Source of the DNA: Candidatus Saccharimonadota bacterium
Lineage (GTDB): Bacteria > Patescibacteriota > Microgenomatia > UBA1406 > GWC2-37-13
Reading direction: 5' to 3'
DNA length: 32,000 bases
Assembly: GCA_001790095.1 (NCBI GenBank)
Contig: MGBH01000001.1
Span: 990,001-1,022,000, forward strand
Below are positions 6,112 through 18,002 of the stretch, one piece after another; the stretch's first letter is position 1; the number at the start of each line of letters is the position of its first letter. Under the pieces are notes generated by a model that worked only from the letters and a program-made list of their open reading frames with translations, ran no database searches and was not told the origin of the DNA. Both the position numbers and the translations under genes were made by a program.

Positions 6112-7275
6112 TTATCTCTTTAGAGCCTCTATCCCCGGCAGCGTGCCTTTTTCAATAAATTCAAGCATCGCTCCTCCACCTGTTGAGATATGGGTTATCT
6201 TATCAAGATATTCCTTTTTTGAGATGGCAGCCAACGTATCTCCTCCCCCCACAACCGAAGTCACCCCTTCATTATTGGCAATTGAGTAATAAATGAAGTC
6301 TGTTCCCTGTCGAAATACGGGGTTTTCAAAATATCCTACAGGCCCATTCCAGATGATAGTCTTTGCTTTTGCCAAAATGCAGCCGATCTGAGCCTTTGTC
6401 TCAGGGCCTATATCAAAAATTGACTTGTTTTGAGGAATGCTATCTATCTTTACAACCTCACTTGTTTTACTGTCCTTATGTTCCCCCACCAATACATCCA
6501 CCGGAAGCAAGATGTGAGCCCTGTTTCCTTTAGCAAGAGCCAAAAGTTTTCTTGCCAGCTGCACTGATTCGTATTCGCAAAAGCTCGTCCCCACCTCTCG
6601 CCCCTGAGCGCATACAAAAGTATTTGCCAGTCCTCCCCCTATGATAAGGTAATCCACCATTTTTACCAGTTTATTTACTAAGCCTACTTTAGTAGATACT
6701 TTAGCTCCTCCGATGATCGCAACCATGGGCTTTTTCGGCTGTTTGATGACCTGACCCAACATATCTAACTCTTTTTTTAAAAGAAGCCCACCGTAACCCG
6801 GAATAAAATTGGGTGGCCCCACAACTGAGGTATCAGTCCGATGACACACCGCAAAAGCGTCATTCACGTACACATCGGCAAGGCCCGCAAGCTTTTTGGC
6901 AAATAAAGTCGAAAAGTCTTTTTCCTTAGGAAAAAAGCGGATGTTTTCAAGCATGTAGACTCCTTTTTCCTTAATAAAATCAGGAGTCTCAAAATGATCA
7001 ACAAGTGTCACTTTCTGACCCAGGTATTCCTGTAACCTTTTGGCAACTGGTTTGAGAGTATATTTTTTATCTATACCCTTTGGTCGTCCAAGGTGGGAGA
7101 TGAGAATAAGCGTATTATTATTTTCCAATAAACGATTGATAGTTGGAAGAGACTGACGGATACGGGCATCATCAGCTATAGTAGCATTGGGATTGAGTGA
7201 TACGTTGAAGTCAACCCGTAATAAAACACGTTTGTTTTTTATCTCAACCTCATCGATATATTGGATTGCTTTCAT
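6112..7275 (-). CDS. pgk: phosphoglycerate kinase
   Basis: 387 aa. 'LLRVDFNV', 'IIGGAKVSTKV', 'HISTGGGAMLEF' and overall PGK colinearity. Confidence 0.95.
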   Translation of the reverse strand: MKAIQYIDEVEIKNKRVLLRVDFNVSLNPNATIADDARIRQSLPTINRLLENNNTLILISHLGRPKGIDKKYTLKPVAKRLQEYLGQKVTLVDHFETPDFIKEKGVYMLENIRFFPKEKDFSTLFAKKLAGLADVYVNDAFAVCHRTDTSVVGPPNFIPGYGGLLLKKELDMLGQVIKQPKKPMVAIIGGAKVSTKVGLVNKLVKMVDYLIIGGGLANTFVCAQGREVGTSFCEYESVQLARKLLALAKGNRAHILLPVDVLVGEHKDSKTSEVVKIDSIPQNKSIFDIGPETKAQIGCILAKAKTIIWNGPVGYFENPVFRQGTDFIYYSIANNEGVTSVVGGGDTLAAISKKEYLDKITHISTGGGAMLEFIEKGTLPGIEALKR

Positions 7276-7314
7276 AGTAATTTACTTCAAACTAATAAAT
7301 AAAGTGTTTCTGAT

Positions 7315-7397
7315 GTCATCCCCGTGAAGACGGGGATCCAGTCTATAAATACATTGGTTGACATTTTAGTCTAGATTCCGGCCTTCGCCGGAATGAC
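7315..7397 (+). repeat. 83-bp double-hairpin (MITE/REP-like) element, copy A
   Basis: gtcatccccgtgaagacggggatcc...attccggccttcgccggaatgac. Two GC-rich hairpins: atccccg/cggggat at 7318-7337 and attccggc/gccggaat at 7375-7394. The two ends are inverted copies of each other. The reverse complement matches 12194-12276 at 82 of 83 positions. Located between gap and pgk. Confidence 0.9.
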
Positions 7398-7405
7398 GCA
7401 TTTTT

Positions 7406-8419
7406 TTAACAAAAATCAGACACTCTTTCCACCAAATCAACAATTCTTGTGGCATAACCCCATTCATTGTCATACCATCCAAATATCTTGAGCAATTTTC
7501 CACCAATAACCTTTGTGTAATTGGAGTCAAATATACATGAGTGTGAATCACCAATAAAATCACTTGACACAAGCGGGGCGGTTTCATAAGACAAAATACC
7601 CTTCATTACACCTGCAGCATATGTTTTAAAAGCTGAGTTCACTTCTTCAGCCGTTACATCTTTTTTCATGACAGCTGAGATATCAGTGAATGAGACTGTT
7701 GGAGTAGGCACTCGCACAGCCATACCATCAAGTTTACCAGCAAGTTCTGGGATAACTTTGCCTACTGCTTTTGCCGCTCCGGTTGTGGATGGGCCTATGT
7801 TGAGAGCTGCAGCACGGGATCTGTCAGGTTTTTTATTTGCTTCATCCAAAAGAGACTGGGTTGCGGTGTAAGAATGTACGGTGGTTAGATATCCCATCTC
7901 AACGCCAAACTCCTTTTCAATTACTTTAAACATAGGAGCTGCACAGTTGGTCGTACAGGATGCGTTTGAGATCACTTGTTCACTCTTCCAATCGATCTTA
8001 TCATCGTTTACTCCCAAAACTACATGAGTCGTCTCTTTGTCCTTTGACGGAGCGGTCAGAAGCACTTTTTTCACCGTTCCTTTTATATGTTTCATCAGAT
8101 CCTCTTTTTTGGTGAAGGCGCCTGTTGCATCGATTACCACATCAACCCCCCTTGACTCCCATGGGATAGCGTCAATATCAGCGATCATTGAGGCAGGGAT
8201 CTTTGTTCCATCAATGGTTATGCCATCCTCAACCGCTTCAACTTTTTTCCCGAATCTTCTATACACTGAGTCGTATTGCAAAAGATATGCCAACATATCA
8301 GGAGAGGTTTTGCGGGTATTGATAGCTACGATATCAAACGTATTCCGCTCACTTACAATGCGGGTAACTGCTCTTCCTATTCTTCCGAAACCATTTAGTC
8401 CGACTTTAATTTTTTTCAT
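7406..8419 (-). CDS. gap: type I glyceraldehyde-3-phosphate dehydrogenase
   Basis: 337 aa. 'GLNGFGRIGR' NAD-binding motif and the 'SNASCTTNC' active-site motif. Confidence 0.95.
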   Translation of the reverse strand: MKKIKVGLNGFGRIGRAVTRIVSERNTFDIVAINTRKTSPDMLAYLLQYDSVYRRFGKKVEAVEDGITIDGTKIPASMIADIDAIPWESRGVDVVIDATGAFTKKEDLMKHIKGTVKKVLLTAPSKDKETTHVVLGVNDDKIDWKSEQVISNASCTTNCAAPMFKVIEKEFGVEMGYLTTVHSYTATQSLLDEANKKPDRSRAAALNIGPSTTGAAKAVGKVIPELAGKLDGMAVRVPTPTVSFTDISAVMKKDVTAEEVNSAFKTYAAGVMKGILSYETAPLVSSDFIGDSHSCIFDSNYTKVIGGKLLKIFGWYDNEWGYATRIVDLVERVSDFC

Positions 8420-8436
8420 AATAATGAATCAATCGC

Positions 8437-8509
8437 AAATGTCAAATCTCAAAACTCAAATCTTGTTATAGATTTACGATTTGAAATGTAGATTTGCCAT
8501 TTGACATTT
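8437..8509 (-). terminator. heptamer-repeat hairpin downstream of fbp (candidate terminator or RNA-stability element)
   Basis: Outer stem aaatgtcaaat (8437-8447) pairs with atttgacattt (8499-8509). Inner stem aaatct (8458-8463) pairs with agattt (8470-8475) around the loop tgttat. The arms are tandem CAAATNT heptamers. An A/T-rich stretch follows on the minus strand. Confidence 0.5.
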
Positions 8510-8524
8510 AAGATCTAAAATAAC

Positions 8525-9475
8525 TTATAAAAATGTTAAATATTTCTCTATCTCTTTTTTGCTCCCCAACACAATCGGCACCCTCTGGGTCAAGTTCTGG
8601 GGCTCTATATCAAGCGGACTTTTACCCTGTGATGATACGGCCGATCCACCAGCCTGCTCAATAAGATATGACATCGGATTTACCTCATACATAAGTCGTA
8701 ACTTTCCTGTCGGGCGTTTTTTATTTGCGGGATTCATAAAAATCCCACCCTTTAAAAGGGTGCGATGCACATCAGCCACCATTGATCCAACATAACGCGA
8801 TTGATATGGTTTCTCTTCCTTTTTAATACTGGTCAAATAACGCTGCATGCTGTCTTCAAACAGTTCGACATTGCCATCGTTGATGGAATAATAATTCTTT
8901 GTTTCGGGCACTCTTATATTTTCATGCGAATGAAGAAAGCTACCAATCGTTGGATCAAGAGTAAACCCGTGTACTCCTTGGCCTGAAGAGTAGACGAACA
9001 TGACGCTTGACCCATATAAGACATATCCTGCGGCAACCTGCTTTCTCCCTTCTTGCAAAACGTCGCCTTTGTTTTGATAAATGGAAAAGATCGTACCAAT
9101 GTTAATATTTACATCAATGTTGGAAGAGCCATCAAGAGGATCAAAGAATACGTTGTATTTACCTTTTTTATCAACACATACCGGCTCTTCTTTTTCCTCG
9201 CTTGCAACATACCCTACCTGCCCGCTGTCTTTGAGCATATCAAATAAGAGTTTGTCTGAAAAATCATCCAGTTTCATAACCTCTTCATCATAAGCATTTG
9301 TTGCTCCTGTCTTGCCGAGAATATCTACTAATCCTGATCGTTTCACATGGCTTGCGATGATTTTTACTGCGTTTTCTATGTGGGTCAAAAGAAGAGTGAA
9401 GGAACCTGTTGCGTGGGGATTTTTTTTCTCCTGAGCTACGACAAATTCTGTTAGGGTTGTAATATGTCTATACAT
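8525..9475 (-). CDS. fbp: class 1 fructose-1,6-bisphosphatase
   Basis: 316 aa. 'FFDPLDGSSNIDVN' metal-binding motif, 'GYVASEE', C-terminal 'RLMYEVNPMSYLIEQAGG'. The start overlaps the fba stop by 8 nt. Confidence 0.9.
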   Translation of the reverse strand: MYRHITTLTEFVVAQEKKNPHATGSFTLLLTHIENAVKIIASHVKRSGLVDILGKTGATNAYDEEVMKLDDFSDKLLFDMLKDSGQVGYVASEEKEEPVCVDKKGKYNVFFDPLDGSSNIDVNINIGTIFSIYQNKGDVLQEGRKQVAAGYVLYGSSVMFVYSSGQGVHGFTLDPTIGSFLHSHENIRVPETKNYYSINDGNVELFEDSMQRYLTSIKKEEKPYQSRYVGSMVADVHRTLLKGGIFMNPANKKRPTGKLRLMYEVNPMSYLIEQAGGSAVSSQGKSPLDIEPQNLTQRVPIVLGSKKEIEKYLTFL

Positions 9476-10697
9476 AGGATTGGATTTTTTCTTTTGTTTG
9501 TAACACCTGGAGTTTGGTAAACATTGAGAGAAATTGTTTTTCTAGTGCCTCGCGAATCGGTTTTTTTTCTTCCTCGCTCAAACCCCATAACTCTTTTTTA
9601 AAGGGTCCGCATGCTTTTTTACGGGTTGTATATATAAATTGTTCATCGGTCTGTCCTTCTTTTCTCTCTTTAGCACAATTTTCTTTTAACCACGTATACG
9701 TCTTGTCTTTAAGGATCGTGGGTAAGTGTTCGTATATTGTATTTTGGAATCCGGTTGCCAAATGTATCTCAAGAGTCCTGGTCTCAGGGAATTTTCCGAA
9801 TAAAGCCTCGGGTAAAGTAGATGCGCCATGCTGTACTGCTCCACCGATAGCATACTCTTTCCTCCCCGCTTCACCAACCGTTTCAAGCACTCTAAAATCA
9901 AGTTTTACATCTGCAATTTTTCCATCGGGGAGTGGAATACCTCCGTGACTCGTTCCTGTCTGAACACTTACTTTACTGATTCCCCCCTTTGCCTTTGAAC
10001 TCTGTTTAAATCCGTTCATGAATGCCCTAAATTCTTCCACATTACTGTTTTTTCCGCCAATATGACCTATCTCTCCGCCGACTGAGACCATCACATTCAA
10101 AGGCTGTATTTGACGTATATAGTCGTGCAATAGCACGGTCATCTCATAATTATTTTTTTGTTGCTCATCGACCGTTGGTCGATCAAGGTCAACTAATGTT
10201 GAGGCATCAATGTCGATATTGTAGAACCCTGCCTCAACCGATGCTTTGACAAGCGTTTTAAGGGTATCAATTTCTTTTTGAGGATCGCTTGAATAAACGC
10301 TTCGTTTGAATTGATAGTGATCGCCTTGTAAAAAAACAGGGCCTTTATAGCTCTCTTTTATAGCCGCTGCCAACACTACAACCGCATATTCGTCTGGCTT
10401 TTGATCGGTATAGCTTTGCTCGCTACGTGCGATCTCCAAAATAAACGGGCCAATATTATTTTGGGTAACAAGTTTGAAGATAACTCGTGCGGTGTCGTAC
10501 GTCATAGCCCGTATATTTATGGCCGGCACTGTGAATCCACCCACCTTTCCTTGACCAATTGCGATATATAAATCATGAATTGAGGCAGGATAAATACCTT
10601 TTTCTTTTGCTAGACTGCGTATGCTATCTCGCGCCCCATTTTTTAACGTATCATCCGGAGAGAAAATCGCTTGATAAATGAGAGAGTCAATATCCAT
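9468..10697 (-). CDS. fba: class II fructose-bisphosphate aldolase family protein (long form)
   Basis: 409 aa. 'VPAINIR', 'LQGDH', 'IDIDAS', 'GEIGHIGG', 'TGTSHGG' and 'VQHGAST' occur in the order expected for class II aldolases. Confidence 0.8.
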   Translation of the reverse strand: MDIDSLIYQAIFSPDDTLKNGARDSIRSLAKEKGIYPASIHDLYIAIGQGKVGGFTVPAINIRAMTYDTARVIFKLVTQNNIGPFILEIARSEQSYTDQKPDEYAVVVLAAAIKESYKGPVFLQGDHYQFKRSVYSSDPQKEIDTLKTLVKASVEAGFYNIDIDASTLVDLDRPTVDEQQKNNYEMTVLLHDYIRQIQPLNVMVSVGGEIGHIGGKNSNVEEFRAFMNGFKQSSKAKGGISKVSVQTGTSHGGIPLPDGKIADVKLDFRVLETVGEAGRKEYAIGGAVQHGASTLPEALFGKFPETRTLEIHLATGFQNTIYEHLPTILKDKTYTWLKENCAKERKEGQTDEQFIYTTRKKACGPFKKELWGLSEEEKKPIREALEKQFLSMFTKLQVLQTKEKIQSYV

Positions 10698-10901
10698 AGG
10701 TGTTATGTTGCGAATTTATAACACTTACTCCCTCATTATGCCATATTTATAAGATTGTGCAAGTATGTAAGATTTATGTATCTTGTCGCCAAAGAACATG
10801 TATTTATTTGAATATAATTGCAAAATGCGACTTTTTATACGATCGCGTTGGTTTGCCCTGAGGGTGACGCGGTATAAAAAAACACATGAATAATTCCATC
10901 G

Positions 10902-10910
10902 TGTTATAAT
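10902..10910 (+). promoter_or_regulatory. extended -10 box (TGtTATAAT) 7 nt upstream of the HIT start codon
   Basis: tgttataat at 10902-10910 and ATG at 10918, with no Shine-Dalgarno sequence between them. Implies a leaderless or near-leaderless transcript. Confidence 0.4.
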
Positions 10911-10917
10911 ATACGGA

Positions 10918-11346
10918 ATGAAAGACTGTGTGTTTTGCAAAATAGTAACTGGGAAAATTCCAAGCTACAAGGTCTACGAGGATAACGATTTTATGGGATT
11001 TTTAGACATTGCTCCTCTTAATCCAGGAAACGTGCTTCTTATCCCCAAAACACACTACCACTGGGTGTACGATGCGCCAAATATGGGGAAGTATTTTGAA
11101 GTAGCAAGAAAAATAGGAATCGCCGCCCAAAAAGCCGTTGGGGCACACTCTATCAACTTTTTAACGCTTGGATACGAAGTACCTCATGCGCATATCCGTA
11201 TCATCCCCCGTTTTGATAATGATGGCCACACCGACGGTATTCGGCTAAGCGCAGTAAAAAAGATTGCACCAGATGAGATGAAAAAAATAGCAGAGCATAT
11301 TTTGAAGAATATCAAATCTCAAATGTCAAAAGTCAAATCTACATAG
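10918..11346 (+). CDS. HIT-family (histidine triad) nucleotide hydrolase/transferase
   Basis: 142 aa. 'CVFCKI' N-terminus and the histidine triad 'VPHAHIRIIP'. The last ~13 aa (KNIKSQMSKVKST) are encoded by the left arm of the heptamer hairpin. Confidence 0.85.
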   Translation: MKDCVFCKIVTGKIPSYKVYEDNDFMGFLDIAPLNPGNVLLIPKTHYHWVYDAPNMGKYFEVARKIGIAAQKAVGAHSINFLTLGYEVPHAHIRIIPRFDNDGHTDGIRLSAVKKIAPDEMKKIAEHILKNIKSQMSKVKST

Positions 11347-11410
11347 TAGATAACAAATATTTTATATTTGAAATGTCTATTTGAGATCTACCATTTGAAA
11401 TTTGACATAT
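11309..11410. terminator. long imperfect heptamer-repeat hairpin between convergent genes (candidate bidirectional terminator)
   Basis: Left arm is tcaaatc tcaaatg tcaaaag tcaaatc tacat. Right arm is atttgaaatgtctatttgagatctaccatttgaaatttgacat. It lies between the HIT gene (+) and the PilX-like gene (-), and overlaps both 3' ends. Confidence 0.45.
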
Positions 11411-12198
11411 TAAAACGTTGTCACAAAAAAGTCAGCTGGTATCTGCGGATAAGACTGAAACAGCTCTATTTTCTTCGTAACACCGGATGTGGTCTTTGCT
11501 TCAGAAGATATGGTCCTTCCTTGCGGCTTAAGAGCTGCTCCTTTAAATCCAAGTCTGCTTGGGCTGTTTACCACCCGAACTAGCAGGATTTTTTGCAAAG
11601 ATATACCGCTTAGAATAGTTTTATAGCCGAACTCAACGCCTTTGACAGTTTCTCCTGTCGGTGTCAGCGTAGTATCAGGATATGAAAAAATGGTATCACA
11701 ACTATTGGCAACATGTCTTGTCAAGGCATTGGTCGTATCAGCTATAAAAGTCAGCTCAAGAGCTGGACAGGTACTTTCTCCTTCTGTTTGTACGAATAAC
11801 TCAAGATTCCCACCTGACCAGGGATTGGAAAAAGTATTGGTCTCCTGATCATAATCGGTTAGATAAAACATATACTGCTCTCCCCGTTGTAAAAGAGGGG
11901 TGACAAACTCATCTCCGCCCCTTTCAATCACATCCGCCTGGCCTGTAATACCGGTTCCATCAAATGCAGGAAGCGAGCTTAAGGCTACTGTTGCTTTTGC
12001 CTGAATTGCTGCCTCAAGAGCAGCTTCAGCCGCAGCAAGGGCTTTTTGTGATTCCTCTTCTAGCTTGGTCATCTGGGTTTCGGTCGTTGAGGTAAAGGCA
12101 ATAGTCATCACAACCGTTATAGCAGTTGCCAACAACATGACGGTTATAAGTAATATTTGACCTTTTTGTTTAGCTTTTTTCATAAGTTTTTTTGTCAT
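11410..12198 (-). CDS. PilX-N-terminal-domain-like (type IV pilus minor-pilin-like) protein
   Basis: 262 aa. 'KGQILLITVMLLATAITVVMTIAFTSTTETQMT' followed by 'AAAEAALEAA' resembles the PilX_N pattern (R/K-G-x-x-L-hydrophobic helix, then ..AEaGl..). The ATG at 12198 lies inside repeat copy B. An alternative in-frame ATG is at 12183. Confidence 0.5.
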   Translation of the reverse strand: MTKKLMKKAKQKGQILLITVMLLATAITVVMTIAFTSTTETQMTKLEEESQKALAAAEAALEAAIQAKATVALSSLPAFDGTGITGQADVIERGGDEFVTPLLQRGEQYMFYLTDYDQETNTFSNPWSGGNLELFVQTEGESTCPALELTFIADTTNALTRHVANSCDTIFSYPDTTLTPTGETVKGVEFGYKTILSGISLQKILLVRVVNSPSRLGFKGAALKPQGRTISSEAKTTSGVTKKIELFQSYPQIPADFFVTTF

Positions 12199-12276
12199 TC
12201 CGGCGAAGGCCGGAATCTAGACTAAAATGTCAACTAATGTATTTATAGACTGGATCCCCGTCTTCACGGGGATGAC
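12194..12276 (-). repeat. 83-bp double-hairpin (MITE/REP-like) element, copy B (inverted relative to copy A)
   Basis: gtcattccggcgaaggccggaatctagactaaaatgtcaactaatgtatttatagactggatccccgtcttcacggggatgac. Differs from the reverse complement of 7315-7397 by a single base (caacTaatg versus caacCaatg). Located between the 1191-aa gene and the PilX-like gene. Confidence 0.9.
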
Positions 12277-12292
12277 AAATCGATATACAATT

Positions 12293-15200
12293 TTATTGTA
12301 TCTGTTTCCAATCATACATACTTATTGACAAATATGGCAACAAATCAAGATATTGACGTTGATCCATAGCGATAAACAATGATGGTCTTTGTAAATTTTG
12401 AAGTTGCCTTCCGTTTTCAAAGGTAGGCGTACCTGATTGATGAACAAGACCCCCTTTTATTTTAAGGGCAAGGTCTTCAGTATTGCCTGTTGTTACATTG
12501 TTGCCAATCAAAATCGCTTGCACCTCAGTGACAGTTGAGGAGATGGTAATATCTCTTGCAACGATCGCTATTGCAGCATTACCAACCGATGCGCTGTTTA
12601 AATCAATATTGATTCCAATCCTATTCTGATCAGCTACAAGAACAATTTTTTTGTTAACAAAATAAGATGAGTCGTTTATGTCTATGTCACTTCCCACATA
12701 ATAGATTCCATCTCCCACAATATCTGCAAGCTGCGTAATAGTCTTGTATTCCTTACGTGACTTCATATACTCTGCGTATTTTGTTGGAGTAAAGCTATGA
12801 AGCTGTATATAGGATGTGTTATACCAGTTAGGCTCTGAGTATTGAGTCGCATTTGGACCAAGTCTTAGATTGCCAGCACTTAAGATGCCACCTGCATTAT
12901 TCACAATAAGATATTTGTCAAGCGTATCGTCCGTATCTGAGTCTGTATATTTAAGCATGTTGTTGGGGATGATGCTTGACCTGCCAGATCTAAGATTGTC
13001 ATAAGAAACGTTACCCATCTTAAGCCACGATGAGGGAACAGAGAAAAATACAGGAATCGTTGGGACTACGCCGGGTGGCACAATGGGGGTTGGAGTAATA
13101 CTCCCTCCAAACGGTGTAGGGGTGGGAGGAAGCGGTGTTGCGGTTGGAATGGGTGTACTGGTTGGACTCACTTCTCCTGTTGGGATCGGAGTTAGAGTCG
13201 GACCGCCAGGAGTAACAGTTGGGATCGGAGTTAGAGTTGGACCGCCCGGAGTTATGGTTGGAGTCGGGGTCAGAGTTGGTCCGCCCGGAGTTATGGTTGG
13301 AGTCGGGGTCAGAGTTGGTCCGCCCGGAGTTATGGTTGGGGTTGGCGTTGATGTAGGGCCAACGGGTGTTGGAGTTAAAGTTGGCGTTGAAGTTGGAGCG
13401 TTAGTTGGGGTCGGTGTCAGAGTCGGACCGCCAGGAGTTATAGAAGGAGACGGAGTAGGACTCAAAAGACAGATTGTTATTATCTCAAGATACTCCCCTC
13501 CACATTGATTACTTTGACGCCAATCAACATTACCATAATCGCCATAAGTAGCAGAAAGAGTCATGTCAAAGCATGGCGGTATACAATCTCCTCCTTGATT
13601 ATCAACAATAAGGTTGCAACTATAGTTGGAGGGTGTTTTTGTACAAGTAGATGTGACACCAGGAGGTACGGTGACTTGTAGATCAAGCTGGTCCGGATCA
13701 ATATTCATACTTGTACTACAACTTGTACCTAAATCTTCAATATATTTTCCTTGGATATTGATAGTTGGATAGGGAGATGGAGTAGGTATGGTATAGATAG
13801 TAGTAGTCCAGCCTGAGGTATTGGTAAAACTATCCCGCGCCCTTACTCTCCCATAAAAAGTAGTTCCTCCTGGATATGATTGCTGAAGTGCCTGCTGTGT
13901 CGTATTGACCCAACTATTACTCCAACCTGAAGCAAGAGGACTATAGTCACTTTCTGTTGATACCTCTGATTGATATGGAAGAGCATTTAAACCACCACAT
14001 CCTCCATCGGTAGTTGTGTTCCATTTATAAGAGGCAAAATAATTTTCTCGGCAGTCAGGATCCGGATAAATGCTAACAAATGCTGCTCCACCTGGGGGAG
14101 TTGGAGCTGTTTGATCTATTGAAAGAGCGCGGCTTGGTGCAGGAATAGCAGGTGTCGTACATTTGATTGGAGCAGCTGTTGAACGTCCTCGTGCGCCCCA
14201 GTAATAAGTACCTGTACCAGTTACGCTACATGAGGCATAGCTAACAGGATTTGCGCTTGCAAGCCATCCGCTGTTACAACTCCACGGACTACCAAAACCA
14301 GTATCAGTATCTACTCCAAACTGTATCTGGTCTGAACAAGTATCATATGAGGCTGAAAGAGCGGGAATATTATTATAGCAACCTGATGCTGGCGACTGTC
14401 CGCTTACTCCACAGGTTGGAGCTATAAGATTATAGTTATATACTGTCGAACAGGTCTCTGCTGCTCCGTTTGAAGCACATATTTGAGCTGTCCCACTCCA
14501 TGCGCTTAGCGATATAGTATTATCCGTCCTTGCCGTATAGAGAATTCCTGTTTTTACTTCCACCCCGTTGATCAACAAACGGAATTGGTTGGTACGGGTT
14601 CCACATACGTATCCCCATCCTTGACTACACCCGTTGTTGTTATTGGGAAAGGTCCAGTCAACATCATACCGTTGAGTACAACCAGCCGCAGTATATAATG
14701 TCACTGAACTTACTACGGGTTGCAGGGGTGATGAATCAATACAGCAAGAACGTGAATCAGTTCCTCCACATGCAACTGAAGGAGAGCTACATGAACAAGC
14801 ACAGTTATTCTCAGCTCCAGGATTACAGGTTCGCTCTTCATTGCCGGTCCCACATGCAACACTACAAGAACCCCAGCTTCCCCAGCTTGCAGTACGGGTC
14901 GTACCAGCAGGAGTACATGTATCAACTCCTCCATTATAACCAGGTATCCATCCGCATGATGCACCAGTGCATCCGACATGCTGACCCGTACAGGTAAACC
15001 CAGCCCAGCTTGTTTGGCATCCGCTATACGGATAACTTTCTCCTGACTTTATACCCTGAAGAGCTTGTTCATAATAAGTGTCAGGACTTACGCTCACGTA
15101 GATGCTCGGTTGCGCCACCGGAGCAATAAACTGATCTCCTGCAGCGGGTGAATTCCAATCACCAAGTGGGCTTTTGTTTAATCGAACAGCGTATGCAGCA

Positions 15201-15868
15201 GCCCCAGCTAATGTATTCCAAGATATGGCAGCATTTGCTCCCCTTGTAGAACAGGAAACAACCACGTTGCTTGTACAGGGAAGTGGGGTTGGAGTGGGAG
15301 TGGATGTGGGGATGGGAGTAGATGTGGGGATGGGAGTGGATGTGGGGATGGGAGTAGATGTGGGGATGGGAGTAGAGCTGGGAGAAAAAACTGTAGGGAC
15401 GGGAGTAGAGCTGGGAGGAACTGTAGGAACTGGAGTATCTCCAGGCTCTTCAGTAGGACTCACACATGCATCACAACAACCAACTACCGAATTATCTCCC
15501 GATCCACCTATACATGGATAATAGGTACTATATTTAGTTGCACAATTACACAGTCCCCCTGGAACAGTTACTTCACAAACTGAAGAGCAAAGTATTGGAG
15601 AGTCACATCCATGAGTCACATTTGCACAATATCCAGTATCAACAGGCCCTATCCATTGACATGATTCGCAGCATATATCTCCAGGATGGTTCCAGCTATC
15701 ACCACTACAACTAGGTCCTCCTCCTACTCCACAATAACCCACTGGACAATCATAAGCAGCATGTAATAGTGTTGGTTTTATCACAAAAAAACTGAAAACA
15801 AATATGTTCACTATAATGAATAGCATTATTTGTTTATTGCTCTTGTTTTTAACACTTAAGATGTTCAT
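12293..15868 (-). CDS. large secreted/surface protein: Cys-rich N-terminal module, Pro/Thr tandem-repeat linkers, TSP1-like motif, unknown C-terminal domain
   Basis: 1191 aa. N-terminal anchor/signal 'IMLFIIVNIFVFSFFVI'. Dense Cys in residues ~40-135. (STPIPT)n and (TPTPTITPGGPTL)n repeats. 'SWGSWGSCSVACGTGNEERTC' at residues ~327-349. Confidence 0.6.
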   Translation of the reverse strand: MNILSVKNKSNKQIMLFIIVNIFVFSFFVIKPTLLHAAYDCPVGYCGVGGGPSCSGDSWNHPGDICCESCQWIGPVDTGYCANVTHGCDSPILCSSVCEVTVPGGLCNCATKYSTYYPCIGGSGDNSVVGCCDACVSPTEEPGDTPVPTVPPSSTPVPTVFSPSSTPIPTSTPIPTSTPIPTSTPIPTSTPTPTPLPCTSNVVVSCSTRGANAAISWNTLAGAAAYAVRLNKSPLGDWNSPAAGDQFIAPVAQPSIYVSVSPDTYYEQALQGIKSGESYPYSGCQTSWAGFTCTGQHVGCTGASCGWIPGYNGGVDTCTPAGTTRTASWGSWGSCSVACGTGNEERTCNPGAENNCACSCSSPSVACGGTDSRSCCIDSSPLQPVVSSVTLYTAAGCTQRYDVDWTFPNNNNGCSQGWGYVCGTRTNQFRLLINGVEVKTGILYTARTDNTISLSAWSGTAQICASNGAAETCSTVYNYNLIAPTCGVSGQSPASGCYNNIPALSASYDTCSDQIQFGVDTDTGFGSPWSCNSGWLASANPVSYASCSVTGTGTYYWGARGRSTAAPIKCTTPAIPAPSRALSIDQTAPTPPGGAAFVSIYPDPDCRENYFASYKWNTTTDGGCGGLNALPYQSEVSTESDYSPLASGWSNSWVNTTQQALQQSYPGGTTFYGRVRARDSFTNTSGWTTTIYTIPTPSPYPTINIQGKYIEDLGTSCSTSMNIDPDQLDLQVTVPPGVTSTCTKTPSNYSCNLIVDNQGGDCIPPCFDMTLSATYGDYGNVDWRQSNQCGGEYLEIITICLLSPTPSPSITPGGPTLTPTPTNAPTSTPTLTPTPVGPTSTPTPTITPGGPTLTPTPTITPGGPTLTPTPTITPGGPTLTPIPTVTPGGPTLTPIPTGEVSPTSTPIPTATPLPPTPTPFGGSITPTPIVPPGVVPTIPVFFSVPSSWLKMGNVSYDNLRSGRSSIIPNNMLKYTDSDTDDTLDKYLIVNNAGGILSAGNLRLGPNATQYSEPNWYNTSYIQLHSFTPTKYAEYMKSRKEYKTITQLADIVGDGIYYVGSDIDINDSSYFVNKKIVLVADQNRIGINIDLNSASVGNAAIAIVARDITISSTVTEVQAILIGNNVTTGNTEDLALKIKGGLVHQSGTPTFENGRQLQNLQRPSLFIAMDQRQYLDLLPYLSISMYDWKQIQ
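13188..13343 (-). repeat. 4 x 39-bp coding tandem repeat (TPTxTPGGPTLTP units)
   Basis: Units at 13188-13226, 13227-13265, 13266-13304 and 13305-13343. Units 3 and 4 are nearly identical. A partial further unit lies around 13408-13440. Confidence 0.85.
15296..15385 (-). repeat. about 4.5 x 18-bp coding tandem repeat (STPIPT units)
   Basis: gggagtRgatgtggggat repeated from 15296 (15296-15313, 15314-15331, 15332-15349, 15350-15367, then degenerate). Confidence 0.85.
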
Positions 15869-15877
15869 ATATTAAAT

Positions 15878-16687
15878 TCAATCAATTCTATTTACAGTAC
15901 TAAACAGCAATAGATTAGGATCCAAGACACCATTTTCTAGAAAGTTCATTAACGAAGTATGATAATTTGGATCTTCTAAAAAAGGCTTCATTACGTTTTG
16001 ATAGAAAACCCAATTAGAATCCATACCTCTAAGACTGGTAAATTGTAGTAAGATCATTACGTCTCCTCGTTGAGCGTTTGAAGTAAAAGGATGTGATTCT
16101 TCAATAAAGCTTTTCCACCAATTAAAATCTTGTAACTGTTCAGGGGTGGGAGCAAAAGTTATACCCGCCTGACTCATAAATGTCGTTGTGGCTTCTATCG
16201 TCTGTCCATTGATATATATTGTGCCATCAGAAGCTCTCACAACAAGGTTTTGCGCAAAATTGACAACCTGTCCATCTATAACATAACTACCTTGAAATCT
16301 AACCAGTGAGTCTCCTACTCTTTCCTCGTTTAAATATAGAGGTTCTGCCCCATATTCTGCTCCATGATAAAAAGCACGTATATTATACCAATCTGTTCTG
16401 TTGTCTCCGCTTTTGGTAGACGAGGCGAAAACATCTTTATATTTAGAACCAACCTTTATTTCAATCTGTTTGTTTAATGGCAATAATGTGAACTTTTTTT
16501 CTTCTTCCTTTTCGCGGATATACTGAACAAGCAGTATCATAATAAAGACAAATTCGATAAAAAAGATAAAGAAGAATAAAAAGAAAATAGGACTTGGTTT
16601 TTTACGCCTAGCGGTGCGAGAAATATCATTATGAAGCGGGTGATTTACAACCATATATTCATTATAACGCAACTGCAGAAAAATCAA
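15878..16687 (-). CDS. membrane-anchored protein carrying the shared ~177-aa C-terminal domain (paralogous to the C-terminus of the 801-aa lipoprotein)
   Basis: 269-aa track ORF that starts at TTG. The more likely start is ATG 16654 (MVVNHPL...), with TATAAT (16666..16661) 6 nt upstream. TM segment 'IFFLFFFIFFIEFVFIMILLV'. Residues 93-269 are almost identical to the C-terminus of the 17974..20379 product. Confidence 0.6.
   Translation of the reverse strand: MIFLQLRYNEYMVVNHPLHNDISRTARRKKPSPIFFLFFFIFFIEFVFIMILLVQYIREKEEEKKFTLLPLNKQIEIKVGSKYKDVFASSTKSGDNRTDWYNIRAFYHGAEYGAEPLYLNEERVGDSLVRFQGSYVIDGQVVNFAQNLVVRASDGTIYINGQTIEATTTFMSQAGITFAPTPEQLQDFNWWKSFIEESHPFTSNAQRGDVMILLQFTSLRGMDSNWVFYQNVMKPFLEDPNYHTSLMNFLENGVLDPNLLLFSTVNRID
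15899..16413. repeat. 515-bp direct repeat, copy 1 (partner 17998-18512)
   Basis: Constant offset of 2099 nt with no indels. 16015-16413 equals 18114-18512 exactly (399 bp, checked line by line). A ~62-bp patch (15954-16014) carries ~23 substitutions. The distal ~55 bp are identical again. Confidence 0.9.
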
Positions 16688-16712: not shown

Positions 16713-18002
16713 ATGGTTAGTTATCTTCCAAAAACCATCTTTGTTTTGTTTTTTACCCTTATTTTTTTACTTGAGGGCCTATCTTTTAAAAAAGGAAGAG
16801 AGATCTCATATGTACTTATTTTGTGTATGCCGTCTTTTTTATTTTACCTTCATTTTATGTTTAAAAATAGAATAAAATTAAGCCCGTTTGTGGGGTTTGT
16901 CAGCGCCCTTTATATTGTGTTTGTTTCGTTGTCTGCTCTTTCCTCTAAACAAATAAACGTCTCTATTGAGGGCGTATTACTTACAATTGCAGTCGTCTCA
17001 CTTTTTATTTATTCTTCATACCATAGAGACGAATTACAAAACATAGTCCTTGCTATGATAATGATTTTGTCATTTGTTTTTATCAGTCGTCATGTTTTGT
17101 ACCGATTAATACCAATTGATTTTGGAGGTCTACTTACTTTATCAGCATTTCAGTTTTTTTACTCTTTTTATCCAAACCATAATCAGCTTGGGACTTTTTT
17201 AACTCTTCCAATAATTACATGTTTTTTTTATCTCTTTTTTACTGCACCTTCTGTAAAGACACCAACAAGTGAGTCGTTTATCAAAAAGACAATGTCGTGG
17301 CTTCTTACAAAAAAACATATATTACTTATACTCTTTTACTTTCCTTTTTTTATTTTTTCTTATTCCCGCTCGAGTTACAATTCCGTATTTTGGACCTTTA
17401 TCCTGATGTTGTTCTATAATAGAAAAATTCTTTTTTCAAACAATTTTTTTTCTAAGAAAAAGATCGTTTTTATTATTTTGTTTGGAATCATTGTTTTGCT
17501 TATGTTTTTTATCACTGTAGAAGAAGTAAAAAGTATTCCGATTATATCTTCTCTTCATGTATGGTTACAAAAATATGCAGGTCTCGGTGGAAAAAGTTTT
17601 CTCTCAGGAAGATTCTTAATGTTCTCTGACATGTTACAAAGAGCTGAAGGAAAATACTTATTAGGGCTCGGCAAACCTCTTATATACTCTCAATCATATA
17701 CTCTCCATACAAATATTGGGTGGCCATCCCATAGTCTGATAGTCGACATCATCGCAAAACAGGGTTTGTTAAGTTTTTTTGCTTTTGTATTACTTCATGT
17801 AGTTATATTTGTCAAATCAGATAAAAGAAGTGTTTTTTTCTATCTCTGGATCAACCTTTTCATTAATTTTCTTACAAATTGGAGCTACACATTCTATTCT
17901 TTATATTGTATATACTTTATCCTACCTGGATTGATCCCTGTTATCCTTTCTTCATCTACTCAAAATAAACAATTTATTCGATCATTCTACCCAATTGACT
18001 AA
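16713..18002 (+). CDS. polytopic membrane protein, O-antigen ligase/polymerase (Wzy_C)-like
   Basis: 429 aa with many TM segments. 'FSYSRSSY' and 'SGRFLMFSDML..GLG..WPSHSLIVDIIAKQGLLSFFAFVLL' resemble the Wzy_C pattern (SR..., R..w, G-x-G, aHN.yl..l.e.G..G). TATAAT at 16701-16706 lies 6 nt before the ATG. Confidence 0.5.
   Translation: MVSYLPKTIFVLFFTLIFLLEGLSFKKGREISYVLILCMPSFLFYLHFMFKNRIKLSPFVGFVSALYIVFVSLSALSSKQINVSIEGVLLTIAVVSLFIYSSYHRDELQNIVLAMIMILSFVFISRHVLYRLIPIDFGGLLTLSAFQFFYSFYPNHNQLGTFLTLPIITCFFYLFFTAPSVKTPTSESFIKKTMSWLLTKKHILLILFYFPFFIFSYSRSSYNSVFWTFILMLFYNRKILFSNNFFSKKKIVFIILFGIIVLLMFFITVEEVKSIPIISSLHVWLQKYAGLGGKSFLSGRFLMFSDMLQRAEGKYLLGLGKPLIYSQSYTLHTNIGWPSHSLIVDIIAKQGLLSFFAFVLLHVVIFVKSDKRSVFFYLWINLFINFLTNWSYTFYSLYCIYFILPGLIPVILSSSTQNKQFIRSFYPID

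Follow-up and report, generated by a model that had tools for sequence, protein, structure and literature searches.

Inverted head-to-head SRM doublets resembling gene-less ssn units bracket a gap-fbp-fba-HIT-pilX segment in a Candidatus Roizmanbacteria genome

The window analysed here, a 32,000-nt stretch of a Candidatus Roizmanbacteria chromosome (contig MGBH01000001.1, positions 990,001 to 1,022,000), carries two copies of an 84-bp element, A and B, in inverted orientation (Table 1). Both are intergenic among co-directional genes, as the initial annotation had stated, and these genes are on the minus strand: A lies in the gap to pgk spacer and B between the gene of a 1191-aa surface protein and a pilX-like gene. 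Direct alignment of 7314-7397 with the reverse complement of 12194-12277 revealed 83 identical positions out of 84, the sole mismatch being the G at 7356 versus the base at 12235. A repeat search of the window recovered the same inverted arms of 84 nt, 99% complementary and 4796 nt apart. The pair had been described as near-identical 83-bp copies that differ at one base, which holds over the full 84 nt.

Table 1. Features of the locus, in window coordinates
Feature	Coordinates	Strand	Description
pgk	6112..7275	-	downstream neighbour of element A
element A	7314..7397	.	84-bp head-to-head SRM doublet in the gap to pgk spacer; aligns with 41 MAG doublets
element A arm 1	7314..7341	+	SRM hairpin TGTCATCCCCGTGAAGACGGGGATCCAG, type 1; SRM regex match; DNA fold
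element A spacer	7342..7370	.	29 nt, AT-rich, TCTATAAATACATTGGTTGACATTTTAGT
element A arm 2	7371..7398	-	SRM hairpin CGTCATTCCGGCGAAGGCCGGAATCTAG, type 2; SRM regex match; DNA fold
gap (GAPDH)	7406..8419	-	upstream neighbour of element A
pilX-like gene, probable true start	11410..12183	-	Met-6 of longest ORF; orthologue N-termini, 257-aa gene calls
element B	12193..12277	.	same doublet, opposite orientation; spacer between surface protein gene and pilX-like gene
element B arm 2 (type 2)	12193..12220	+	TGTCATTCCGGCGAAGGCCGGAATCTAG; SRM regex match
element B arm 1 (type 1)	12250..12277	-	TGTCATCCCCGTGAAGACGGGGATCCAG; SRM regex match
1191-aa surface protein gene	12293-15868	-	upstream of pilX-like gene, across element B

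In each element, a hairpin module of 27-28 nt is present in two diverged copies placed face to face. The two hairpins, ATCCCCGT-GAAG-ACGGGGAT and ATTCCGGC-GAAG-GCCGGAAT, both display an 8-bp stem and a 4-nt loop, and the single arms are predicted to fold as DNA with -8.4 kcal/mol (arm 1, z -3.2) and -9.5 kcal/mol (arm 2, z -4.1). The window holds exactly two occurrences of each hairpin 20-mer, against 0 matches expected from 100 shuffles. The AT-rich spacer between the hairpins contains TTGACA, and the termini are mutually inverted, (T)GTCAT...ATGAC, both as first described. Read inward from each arm, the spacer of element A ends in WCTAWAAT, which the alignment and the inner-junction consensus identify as the conserved sub-terminal boxes of the doublet family.

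Element B had also been credited with supplying the start codon of the pilX-like gene. An ATG at 12196-12198, inside the element, does open the longest ORF; it adds only five in-frame codons and is probably a longest-ORF artefact. The orthologues in two relatives begin at the equivalent of Met-6 (N-termini MKQNREKGQVLLIT and MKDKRNQQGQVLLIT), and so do the 257-aa gene calls in two further assemblies that cover this locus (L001 and L003). Hence, the real start is most likely at 12183-12181, 10 nt outside element B.

The hairpin module could be assigned to a known family. Neisseria NTS/dRS3 repeats are paired with the GIY-YIG ssDNA nuclease SsnA, and SRM-Ssn pairs occur more widely (Chenal et al. 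2025, Nat Commun 16:2388; PMC11893778). When the SRM regular expression published there was applied, all four arms matched, giving 4 matches in the window versus 0.05 expected. Element A arm 2 differs from the Neisseria NTS by two mismatches, which amount to one compensatory C-G to G-C stem pair. Because of these matches, elements A and B are head-to-head heterodimers of CGTC-tagged REPs, equivalent to NTS/SRM (Di Nocera, De Gregorio and Rocco 2013, BMC Genomics 14:522; PMC3733652). The stem pairing is maintained through compensatory change: among 24 distinct modules from a set in which stem positions were left free, pair 6-21 was Watson-Crick in 21 (6.9 expected) and pair 9-18 in 19 (8.2 expected). 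The module is also very widespread, with a relaxed 18-base pattern found in at least 120 IMG/VR stretches.

As described in the 2013 survey, CGTC REPs (including Rickettsia RPE-6/RPE-4 and Wolbachia CGTC-4) are mostly HH dimers, often heterodimers, with conserved spacers of 20-100 bp and no known transposase. Our doublets share the 8-bp stem, 4-nt loop and 3-nt tail, the outward tags, the conserved spacer within that range, the unlike stems that make a heterodimer, and a mostly intergenic location between unidirectional genes. They differ in that the survey linked no enzyme to its repeats, whereas in the host and in related MAGs the same ends enclose a GIY-YIG gene. According to its abstract, CPR is not among the phyla covered.

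The gene-bearing counterpart of the doublets emerged from a survey of 75 loci in about 20 Roizmanbacteria/Patescibacteria MAGs, in which 161 hairpins were counted. Besides 41 doublets of 82-96 bp and 10 short ones, these loci hold 7 units measuring 376-385 bp. These units read hairpin-TCTATAATTACCTTAT-ATG(97-aa GIY-YIG)-stop-GGAATATTTAGYYTGG-inverted hairpin, and their protein matches the GIY-YIG family (Pfam PF01541, 55 bits). The type 1 module is the commonest in related MAGs (46/165). The WCTAWAAT-type boxes also flank the ssn genes, and the inner-junction consensus of the units agrees with that of the doublets. Since the same unlike ends and inner junctions bracket the 97-aa GIY-YIG gene, the doublet appears, at the level of sequence, to be structurally a gene-less SRM-ssn-SRM unit, with the same sub-terminal boxes and orientation and lacking the ~290-bp gene. 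The shared junctions alone do not prove an origin by ssn deletion, since the ~12-nt sub-terminal box is found after unpaired SRMs as well; alternatively, a doublet may have captured the gene, or assembly from 40-nt modules may have taken place. Target-site duplications, which the initial annotation had proposed to look for, are absent at the elements, and 54 of 60 units have none.

The host chromosome itself contains one gene-bearing SRM-ssn-SRM unit, 24 kb from element A. The accessions of its protein (P0258) lie exactly 25 before that of the window GAPDH in three sibling genomes. The ssn locus (L211) shares 2838 nt, at 100% identity, with the record of the window itself (L215); the ssn ATG thereby maps to window coordinate -16768. 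Upstream of position 980679, the locus sequence is that of a sibling assembly and not of the window's own record. SRMs are found on both sides of the gene. Its 5' arm has the same stem as the type 1 arm, and its 3' arm is unlike the type 2 arm (CCGGC stem plus CTAG). Five more SRM elements, all decayed, occur in the linked 58.8 kb. Intact and decayed copies nearby and related copies in other genomes thus bear out the multi-copy REP/MITE-like family proposed at first. The host ssn gene is present and intact, with its catalytic residues kept. The 94-aa product is 58% identical (E 7e-40) to a 94-aa ORF of the NTS-dense gonococcal ssnA locus; its Y9, Y20 and E67 align with Y6, Y17 and E64 of SsnA, and core residues are all invariant among CPR and proteobacterial Ssn homologues.

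The nature of this gene also bears on the partner initially expected, a RAYT or IS200/IS605-type tyrosine transposase. If the doublets were REPINs moved by a Y1 (HUH) transposase encoded elsewhere, their architecture would fit, with two inverted REPs, a short spacer, one long hairpin and no target-site duplication, as described for REPINs in PMC3337134. REPIN-RAYT systems (Bertels & Rainey 2011; Nunvar et al. 2010) likewise combine a repeat-flanked single-copy enzyme gene with intact and decayed copies, and a Y1_Tnp gene lies near gap-pgk in one relative (L210). That locus, however, has no SRM, and the gene tables of the linked 58.8 kb list no Y1 gene. The tag is (C/T)GTC, continued as GTC(A/T), and not GTAG, and no transposase was found associated with CGTC REPs (PMC3733652). 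Moreover, the repeat-bracketed gene encodes a 94-97-aa GIY-YIG nuclease, Ssn, in the 7 related units and in the host. GIY-YIG chemistry has no covalent intermediate, ruling out strand transfer in the REPIN-RAYT style. We regard a Y1-driven system as extremely improbable. Sub-terminal hairpins that would be recognised as ssDNA and the lack of duplications recall IS200/IS605 elements, whose two hairpins share one strand and whose ends, unlike those here, are no terminal inverted repeats. As in IS-derived MITEs, short non-autonomous derivatives share both ends with a gene-bearing unit; classical MITEs differ, as they derive from DDE transposons and make target-site duplications.

Meanwhile, comparison with relatives provided insights into how the copies arrived. 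In four relatives (PGK 74-77% identical), element A is absent from the gap-pgk junction and no SRM occurs within 10-13 kb of the locus; in two (L209 and L210), gap and pgk overlap by 8 nt. At site B, the orthologous spacer of relatives L207 and L208 is 34-60 nt long and holds no SRM. With both sites free of SRMs in relatives and gap/pgk overlapping in two of them, elements A and B appear to be lineage-specific insertions into tight gene junctions. No precise empty site was found among the 75 loci or the nearest relatives, as the latter are too distant (about 77% PGK identity). The two elements are mutual closest relatives, and their 83/84 identity suggests recent copying of one, with the other element or a common master as the source.

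Such a pair had also been viewed as a substrate for inversion. It might exist for, or in practice cause, RecA-mediated recombination that flips the 4.8-kb gap-fbp-fba-HIT-pilX segment and switches operon connectivity. The near-identity, spacing and inverted orientation of the copies make this physically possible, but the idea was not supported: six assemblies of this population (NCBI, ENA, JGI) are 100% identical here and show one orientation, the same arrangement recurs in 24 contigs, and the order surface protein-pilX-fba-fbp-gap-pgk is collinear with the SRM-free relative L208. After inversion, the genes upstream of gap-fbp-fba and of pilX would run antisense to them, the substrate is short at 84 bp, and ordinary spread of the repeat family explains the pairing. 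Hence, we deem it very unlikely.

A portable promoter for pgk and pilX, formed by the inward TATAAA/TAAAAT boxes and the spacer TTGACA, seems improbable as well. In the ssn units, a perfect TATAAT lies 8 nt before the ATG and a Shine-Dalgarno sequence is missing, as would fit a leaderless ssn transcript, and the TAAAAT box of element A arm 2 faces pgk. Against this, our scan found no properly spaced sense-strand -35/-10 pair within either element, and the 21 promoter-like sites of the region do not exceed those of shuffles (15.2 +/- 3.8). The arm facing pilX in B is of the other type than the arm facing pgk in A. The same box is kept 3' of ssn, where firing would be antisense; this points to a function in recognition or as a sub-terminal feature.

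Repeats of this kind may act as RNA. E. coli REPs and Neisseria Correia elements protect upstream mRNA from 3' exonucleases or serve RNase III-type processing. Co-transcribed in the gap-pgk and surface protein-pilX messages, the elements could likewise form stable hairpins that act as exonuclease shields or RNase III-type sites. Their position between co-directional genes, the lack of any sense-strand terminator or canonical promoter in the scanned elements, and the strong RNA folds predicted for the entire element (-34.7 to -39.8 kcal/mol, z -3.9 to -6.2) agree with this, and many REPs have been argued to be transcribed and to act as RNA (Di Nocera 2013, PMC3733652). However, A and B are opposite relative to transcription, no Rfam family was matched, and SsnA does not bind RNA (PMC11893778). 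Conservation falls on strand-asymmetric DNA motifs, namely the GTCAT tag and the C that follows the palindrome, as an ssDNA-specific enzyme would require. The relatives manage with overlapping gap and pgk, so the hairpin is dispensable for expression of this operon. We therefore consider an RNA-level element rather doubtful; such a role may have been exapted and layered on a DNA-level origin.

Collectively, we think it quite probable that the elements are SRM heterodimers, gene-less ssn units inserted in this lineage, on which Ssn would act. The doublets belong to an already known system and are no new kind of element, since the repeat is of the NTS/dRS3 type and an Ssn nuclease is encoded 24 kb away. 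The NTS/SsnA system shares with them the hairpin module, a homologous partner protein and a motif-flanked ssn gene, and the gonococcal ssnA locus displays head-to-head doublets of ~109 bp whose sub-terminal sequence, ATCTAG(G)AC(G)TAAAAT.TCAA, is similar. Unlike in Neisseria, the host is a reduced-genome member of the Patescibacteria (CPR), the tag is mostly T-GTCAT instead of C-GTCAT, the heterodimer is compact at 84 bp, and the 58.8 kb inspected showed no clustering into large mosaic SRM arrays. The main text of PMC11893778 mentions neither Patescibacteria nor Candidatus, and its genome survey used RefSeq reference/representative genomes.

By analogy with Neisseria and Wolbachia biochemistry (PMC11893778), we infer binding and cleavage by the host Ssn, as well as the copying mechanism, the mobility and any host effect of the doublets. 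When the locus becomes single-stranded, as lagging-strand template, incoming transforming DNA or an extruded cruciform, the 94-aa Ssn would bind the hairpin on the strand reading GTCAT...ATC and nick a few nucleotides 5' of it. Nicks made by GIY-YIG nucleases are ordinary ones, which these enzymes cannot rejoin alone, and we know of no complete copy-and-paste mechanism for one. A head-to-head doublet would offer nick sites at both outer borders, one per strand, and could thus be a non-autonomous substrate of Ssn, like a REPIN with its RAYT. The 4.8-kb segment would then form an SRM-genes-SRM cassette, and incoming ssDNA might be cut on either strand.

The near-identical inverted pair described in the initial annotation was recovered in a repeat search. 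Doublets A and B are 84 nt long, 99% complementary and separated by 4796 nt. In direct comparison they share 83 of 84 identities, the sole difference being a G/A in the spacer, and each of their hairpin 20-mers occurs exactly twice in the window and in none of 100 shuffles. The coordinates and minus strand of the flanking genes place A in the spacer between gap and pgk, and B in the spacer between a surface-protein gene and a pilX-like gene. Both are intergenic between co-directional genes, as first described.

Coordinates of the doublets, neighbouring genes and linked SRM elements (window coordinates unless a locus is named; L211, host ssn locus in a sibling assembly; L215, the window's own record)
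Feature	Coordinates	Strand	Remark
Doublet A	7314-7397		
Doublet B	12194-12277		
pgk	6112-7275	minus	neighbour of A
gap	7406-8419	minus	neighbour of A
fbp, fba	between gap and pilX-like gene	minus	from gene table
HIT gene	in 4.8-kb segment between the doublets	plus	from gene table
pilX-like gene	11410-12198	minus	neighbour of B
PT-rich surface protein, 1191 aa	12293-15868	minus	neighbour of B
Decayed or variant SRM elements	-23631, -17003, -16890, -16396, -4808		
Insertion-bearing type-1 arms	L211 9937-9985 (~-16834); L215 4512-4585 (~-4808)		host chromosome
Host SRM-ssn(94 aa)-SRM unit	L211 9937-10313		SRM-flanked gene, physically linked to window

Each element is built from two facing copies of a single 27-nt module (GTCAT-YCCSGY-GAAG-RCSGGR-ATCYAG), which have diverged from one another and are separated by a 29-nt spacer. 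Stem differences between the type-1 and type-2 hairpins (arm 1 and arm 2) are compensatory: C..G/T..A, C..G/G..C and T..A/C..G. As single-stranded DNA, each arm is predicted to form an 8-bp stem with a 4-nt GAAG loop (-8.4 and -9.5 kcal/mol; z -3.2 and -4.1), and with RNA parameters a single long hairpin could form across the whole element (-34.7 to -39.8 kcal/mol; z -3.9 to -6.2). All four arms carry the (T/C)GTC tag and the ATC tail, with a C directly after the palindrome. The ATG in copy B, which had been read as the start of the pilX-like gene, is probably not its start, judging from orthologues at this site. The doublet accounts for this probably spurious upstream ATG, and hairpins of such kind generate many short ORFs.

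Other repeats were observed in the same region. AT-rich imperfect heptamer-like runs (CAAATNA / GAAATTT) lie in spacers at 2446-2509, 8431-8522 and 11306-11409, and include a 36-nt inverted pair (8486-8521 / 11309-11344, 83%). A similar AAATTTGAAATTCGAAATTTGAAA run occupies the surface-protein-to-pilX spacer of the relative L207 (2987-3020). Such runs may belong to a further small repeat family or may serve as a regulatory motif. A direct repeat of 300 nt (93%; 15899-16198 and 17998-18297, 2099 nt apart) covers the start of the gene for the 1191-aa surface protein and that of its upstream neighbour, which have paralogous N-termini; this repeat is a likely recombination substrate. The 1191-aa gene also contains tandem 39-nt and 18-nt repeats (13110-13481 and 15270-15420) coding for PT-rich linkers. 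Assemblies of this one population give it lengths of 1191, 1178, 1166 and 990 aa, between flanks that are 100% identical, which points to polymorphism in repeat length or to a collapsed assembly.

The class to which the doublets belong has been known since dRS3 (2000). A relaxed pattern with free stem positions and 18 specified bases matched at least 120 stretches in IMG/VR, and the consensus among the matches listed, GTCATTCCCGCGAAGGCGGGAATCCAG, led to the literature match with Chenal et al. 2025 (PMC11893778). In the available text of that article, the Neisseria Transformation Sequence (NTS; CGTCATTCCCGCGMAVGCGGGAATCYRG) extends the classical dRS3, and the Ssn-related motif (SRM) is a broader motif. 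SsnA, a 94-aa single-domain GIY-YIG nuclease, binds the hairpins and cuts a few nt upstream, acting solely on ssDNA and on one strand, and the ssn gene is often flanked by SRMs (PMC11893778). The same class was catalogued earlier as CGTC-tagged REPs, described in the available text of Di Nocera et al. 2013 (PMC3733652) as having an 8-9-bp stem, a 4-5-nt loop and a 3-nt tail, and as occurring mostly in head-to-head (HH) dimers, often heterodimers, with conserved spacers of 20-100 bp.

All four window arms match the SRM expression (HGTCWYN(0-2)YYVSBRHN(0-5)WNVSBRGN(0-2)RNCYNB), against 0.05 matches expected in the window. Mismatches to the strict NTS number 2, 3, 5 and 5 across the arms and are mostly compensatory stem pairs; arm 2 of A departs from the NTS by one compensatory pair. 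The sizes of stem, loop and tail, the outward tags and a spacer within 20-100 bp fit the CGTC-REP dimer architecture. Judged by their sequence, the window elements are HH heterodimers of the CGTC-REP/SRM class. Their tag is CGTC in one arm and TGTC in three, and the SRM definition permits H at this position. Among related units of CPR bacteria, 50 of 60 have a T before GTCAT and an A after ATGAC. No Rfam family was found anywhere in the window at gathering thresholds. Readings of the hairpins as integron attC sites or as terminators were rejected on motif and context.

Covariation was measured in the viral set from IMG/VR (24 distinct modules), in which stem bases were unconstrained by the search. 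Among the matches listed, pair 6-21 is Watson-Crick in 21 of the 24 modules (6.9 expected), with four pair types, and pair 9-18 in 19 (8.2 expected). This covariation argues that stem pairing is under selection. For the CPR set, a structure-based hairpin finder was used because the published SRM regular expression misses many CPR partner arms (tails CCAA or CCAT). Since this finder demands at least five of six stem pairs, its covariation counts were set aside and the measurement was redone on the unbiased viral set.

These viral-classed contigs (L004-L123) are rich in canonical SRM/NTS-like hairpins, both singletons and doublets. Among the matches listed, contig L089 carries four copies on one strand and L094 carries three, and small GIY-YIG ORFs adjoin some SRMs (L018, L037, L077 and L101). 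A fixed orientation of SRM singletons upstream of an RBS and ATG was rejected (31 vs 32 among the matches listed). A search of an annotated phage collection at E 1e-10 returned no Ssn homologue. The viral-contig SRMs may be true phage sequence or host flanks.

We scanned one genome per species with a pattern made of the 3′ half of the hairpin and the adjoining 11 nt of the element interior, degenerate so as to cover either arm, and recovered 75 loci from about 20 MAGs, none of them the host genome. These MAGs belong to Candidatus Roizmanbacteria and other Patescibacteria/Microgenomates, and several are labelled "uncultured Gammaproteobacteria". In these 75 loci there are 161 hairpins. Of the doublets, 41 (82-96 bp) can be aligned with the window element over its full length and 10 are short (52-65 bp); 7 long units measure 376-385 bp. 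Each long unit consists of a type-1 hairpin, TCTATAATTACCTTAT, an ATG, a 97-aa GIY-YIG ORF, a stop codon, GGAATATTTAGYYTGG and an inverted hairpin of the second type. The sole Pfam domain of this ORF is GIY-YIG (PF01541; 55 bits vs a cut-off of 22.6). The two unlike arms of the long units recur in the doublets without change of relative order, and doublets and units have a common inner-junction consensus (TCTATAATTAC...; from the other end inward, ACTAAA(A/T)AT...). This agreement in arms, order and inner junctions indicates that the doublet is a gene-less form of the SRM-ssn-SRM unit. A sub-terminal box of about 12 nt is also found after unpaired SRMs, so the change may have run in either direction, by ssn deletion from a unit or by ssn capture by a doublet.

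Joined-flank BLAST gave no empty sites among the 75 loci, the few spanning matches being other repeats. A metagenome scan with the lineage-specific arm returned eight unrelated SRMs, from source organisms of 40-67% GC. The MAGs labelled "uncultured Gammaproteobacteria" (loci L124, L125, L127, L130, L131, L138, L139, L142-L145 and others; CAYITZ01, CAZMBH01, CAYINK01 and more) carry Roizmanbacteria-type doublets and 97-aa Ssn units in an AT-rich context; their label looks doubtful, or else the element crossed phyla.

Inside the window, tblastn for an Ssn gene gave noise alone. Through the accessions of one 90% cluster of Ssn homologues we found P0258, a 94-aa protein of the host, whose accession numbers are exactly 25 lower than those of the window GAPDH in three sibling 1.217-Mb genomes. 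L211, its locus in a sibling assembly, and L215, the window's own record, share an overlap of 2838 nt at 100% identity. By this overlap the ssn ATG maps to window coordinate -16768, at a distance of 24 kb from A and 29 kb from B. The host unit comprises GTCATCCCCGTG, a 26-nt enlarged loop, ACGGGGATCCAG, TCTATAATAACCTTAAT, ATG...TAG and TCTGGATTCCCGCCTTCGCGGGAATGAC, and in its 5′ stem it exactly matches arm 1 of the window doublet. Within the linked 58.8 kb are two doublets, this one ssn unit and five decayed or variant SRM elements; the presence of both intact and decayed elements indicates a population of different ages in the host.

Two type-1 arms of the host have 26-33-nt insertions in the loop or stem and keep the outer stem and the TCTATAAT box; the one in L211 is the 5′ arm of the host ssn unit. 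According to the available text of Chenal et al. (PMC11893778), SsnA tolerates loop identity changes and loop extensions. Directly downstream of the ssn unit (L211 10374-10405, about -16396) is GTCATCCTCGGGCTTGGCCCGGGGATCCAG, a variant hairpin whose stem is longer and which resembles the NTSvar type (CGTCATACTCGGGNNNNNCCCGAGTATC) of N. wadsworthii.

The Ssn family was defined by a single domain of about 94-100 aa, homology to SsnA at E < 1e-10, equivalents of Y6/Y17/E64, and cd10448 (GIY-YIG_unchar_3); NCBIfam has no model specific to Ssn. The host protein (MFEKTFYVYILSSQKNGTLYVGV...KDLYI, 94 aa) is a single-domain GIY-YIG protein that retains every core residue invariant across CPR and proteobacterial homologues. 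It matched the N. gonorrhoeae chromosome in tblastn (E 8e-29) and, pairwise, a 94-aa gonococcal ORF at 58% identity (E 7e-40), with host Y9, Y20 and E67 aligned to gonococcal Y6, Y17 and E64. This ORF, unannotated in its record, was taken as the putative ssnA because of its length, the positions of these residues and the density of NTS around it (7 NTS and 11 dRS3 in 3.2 kb). The gonococcal records concerned, NZ_CP119142.1 and NZ_CP119140.1 (L217), of 2.17 Mb and held in a plasmid collection, are evidently chromosomes labelled as plasmids, and in L217 the ssnA-like ORF has no in-frame ATG, so that its start would be ATT. Ssn proteins of CPR bacteria, Nevskia (Gammaproteobacteria) and Desulfococcus (P0103 and P0114 vs P0258) are 65-68% identical across 94-97 aa. 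Hosts so distant would not usually share this much identity, which suggests that the proteins have spread horizontally and/or are very strongly constrained.

The nature of the flanked gene also bears on a REPIN/RAYT or IS200/IS605 system, for whose transposase gene the initial annotation had proposed a search. That explanation fails, as the tag is GTCAT and not GTAG, and the flanked gene encodes a GIY-YIG protein. Furthermore, the gene tables of the linked 58.8 kb contain no Y1_Tnp gene. A 234-aa Y1_Tnp (PF01797) gene was observed in the relative L210 (9571-10275), 2.4 kb downstream of pgk. No SRM hairpins occur in the 13 kb of L210 examined, so HUH transposases are present in the clade, unassociated with SRMs there.

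The nearest PGK relatives are 74-77% identical, and SRMs are absent within 10-13 kb in four of them (L207-L210). At site A, gap and pgk overlap by 8 nt in L209 and L210, and the gap-pgk spacers of L207 (5880-6000) and L208 (5877-6000), of 121-124 nt, contain other, unrelated palindromes. Palindromic elements seem to have landed repeatedly in the gap-pgk junction. The orthologous surface protein (...SMYDW[KR]QIQ*) of L207 and L208 is followed, at site B, by an SRM-free spacer of 34-60 nt. The SRM-free sites of the relatives indicate that both doublets are gains in the host lineage; the expected empty-site junctions are AAAGTGTTTCTGA joined to GCATTTTTTTAAC and TATATCGATT joined to AAAAAAACTTATG. 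The type-2 arm, with its CCGGC stem and CTAG tail, did not recur in any other of 165 modules, hence A and B are each other's closest relatives. The earlier suggestion of a MITE/REP family is borne out in the terminal inverted repeats and the REP class. As to target-site duplication, 54 of 60 related units have no direct repeat at the junctions. A classical IS-derived MITE was rejected on this ground and because what the gene-bearing relative codes for is a nuclease and no known transposase. Inversion of the segment between A and B, also raised at first, finds no support: six assemblies are 100% identical and in one orientation, and the gene order is collinear with L208.

A role as RNA stabiliser or processing site is possible as an add-on to the DNA element. 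The doublets would be co-transcribed and are predicted to fold strongly, without terminator or promoter. However, A and B are opposite in orientation relative to transcription, the conserved asymmetry suits a DNA enzyme that ignores RNA, and the relatives do without the spacer. The case for a portable promoter consists of -10-like boxes, but these have no -35. Neither an intrinsic terminator (GC hairpin plus T-run) nor a -35/-10 pair with 16-18-nt spacing was found on the sense strand at either element, and promoter and terminator site counts in the region are not above those of shuffles.

The analysis shows the sequence family, the selection on the hairpins, the ends that doublets and ssn units share, a cognate gene that is intact, and a presence specific to this lineage. 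By analogy with Neisseria and Wolbachia enzymology, Ssn would bind each arm in single-stranded DNA and nick just outside it. In an HH doublet, this would produce two nicks at the two outer borders, on opposite strands. The doublet would thereby be a non-autonomous substrate, as in REPIN/RAYT systems but with GIY-YIG chemistry. GIY-YIG enzymes cannot rejoin DNA. Extrapolating from the NTS-gene-NTS result in Neisseria, incoming homologous ssDNA over the 4.8-kb segment would be cut whichever strand enters. We tentatively propose, rating it a real but minority possibility, that SRM-ssn-SRM units are a distinct class of mobile elements driven by a GIY-YIG ssDNA nuclease, now or recently, and that the doublets are their non-autonomous "REPIN-like" derivatives, for whose copying the single ssn gene, 24 kb away, would act in trans.

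Both the repeat class (2013, CGTC REPs) and the nuclease partner (2025) are already published. In the available main text of Chenal et al. 2025 (PMC11893778), the terms "MITE", "REPIN", "Patescibacteria" and "Candidatus" are absent. Relative to the available text of the two key papers, the new points are the CPR occurrence and the HH doublets matched to the unlike ends of ssn units. The host, a Candidatus Roizmanbacteria with a CPR genome of 1.2 Mb, is a small clean case, with one intact unit, two near-identical doublets, decayed copies nearby and empty sites in relatives. A unit, doublets with its unlike ends, decayed copies and empty sites in relatives are what an autonomous element and its non-autonomous derivatives would be expected to leave, which makes the mobilisation of CGTC REPs by Ssn directly testable. 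If this is true, Ssn would be the mobilising enzyme that the CGTC-REP super-family (dRS3, RPE-6 and others) has long lacked, and the super-family with its enzyme would extend to CPR bacteria. A bolder corollary is that doublets bracketing pilX and glycolysis genes would let Ssn cut incoming homologous ssDNA of either strand, and that such cutting may tune recombination in an organism dependent on DNA uptake.
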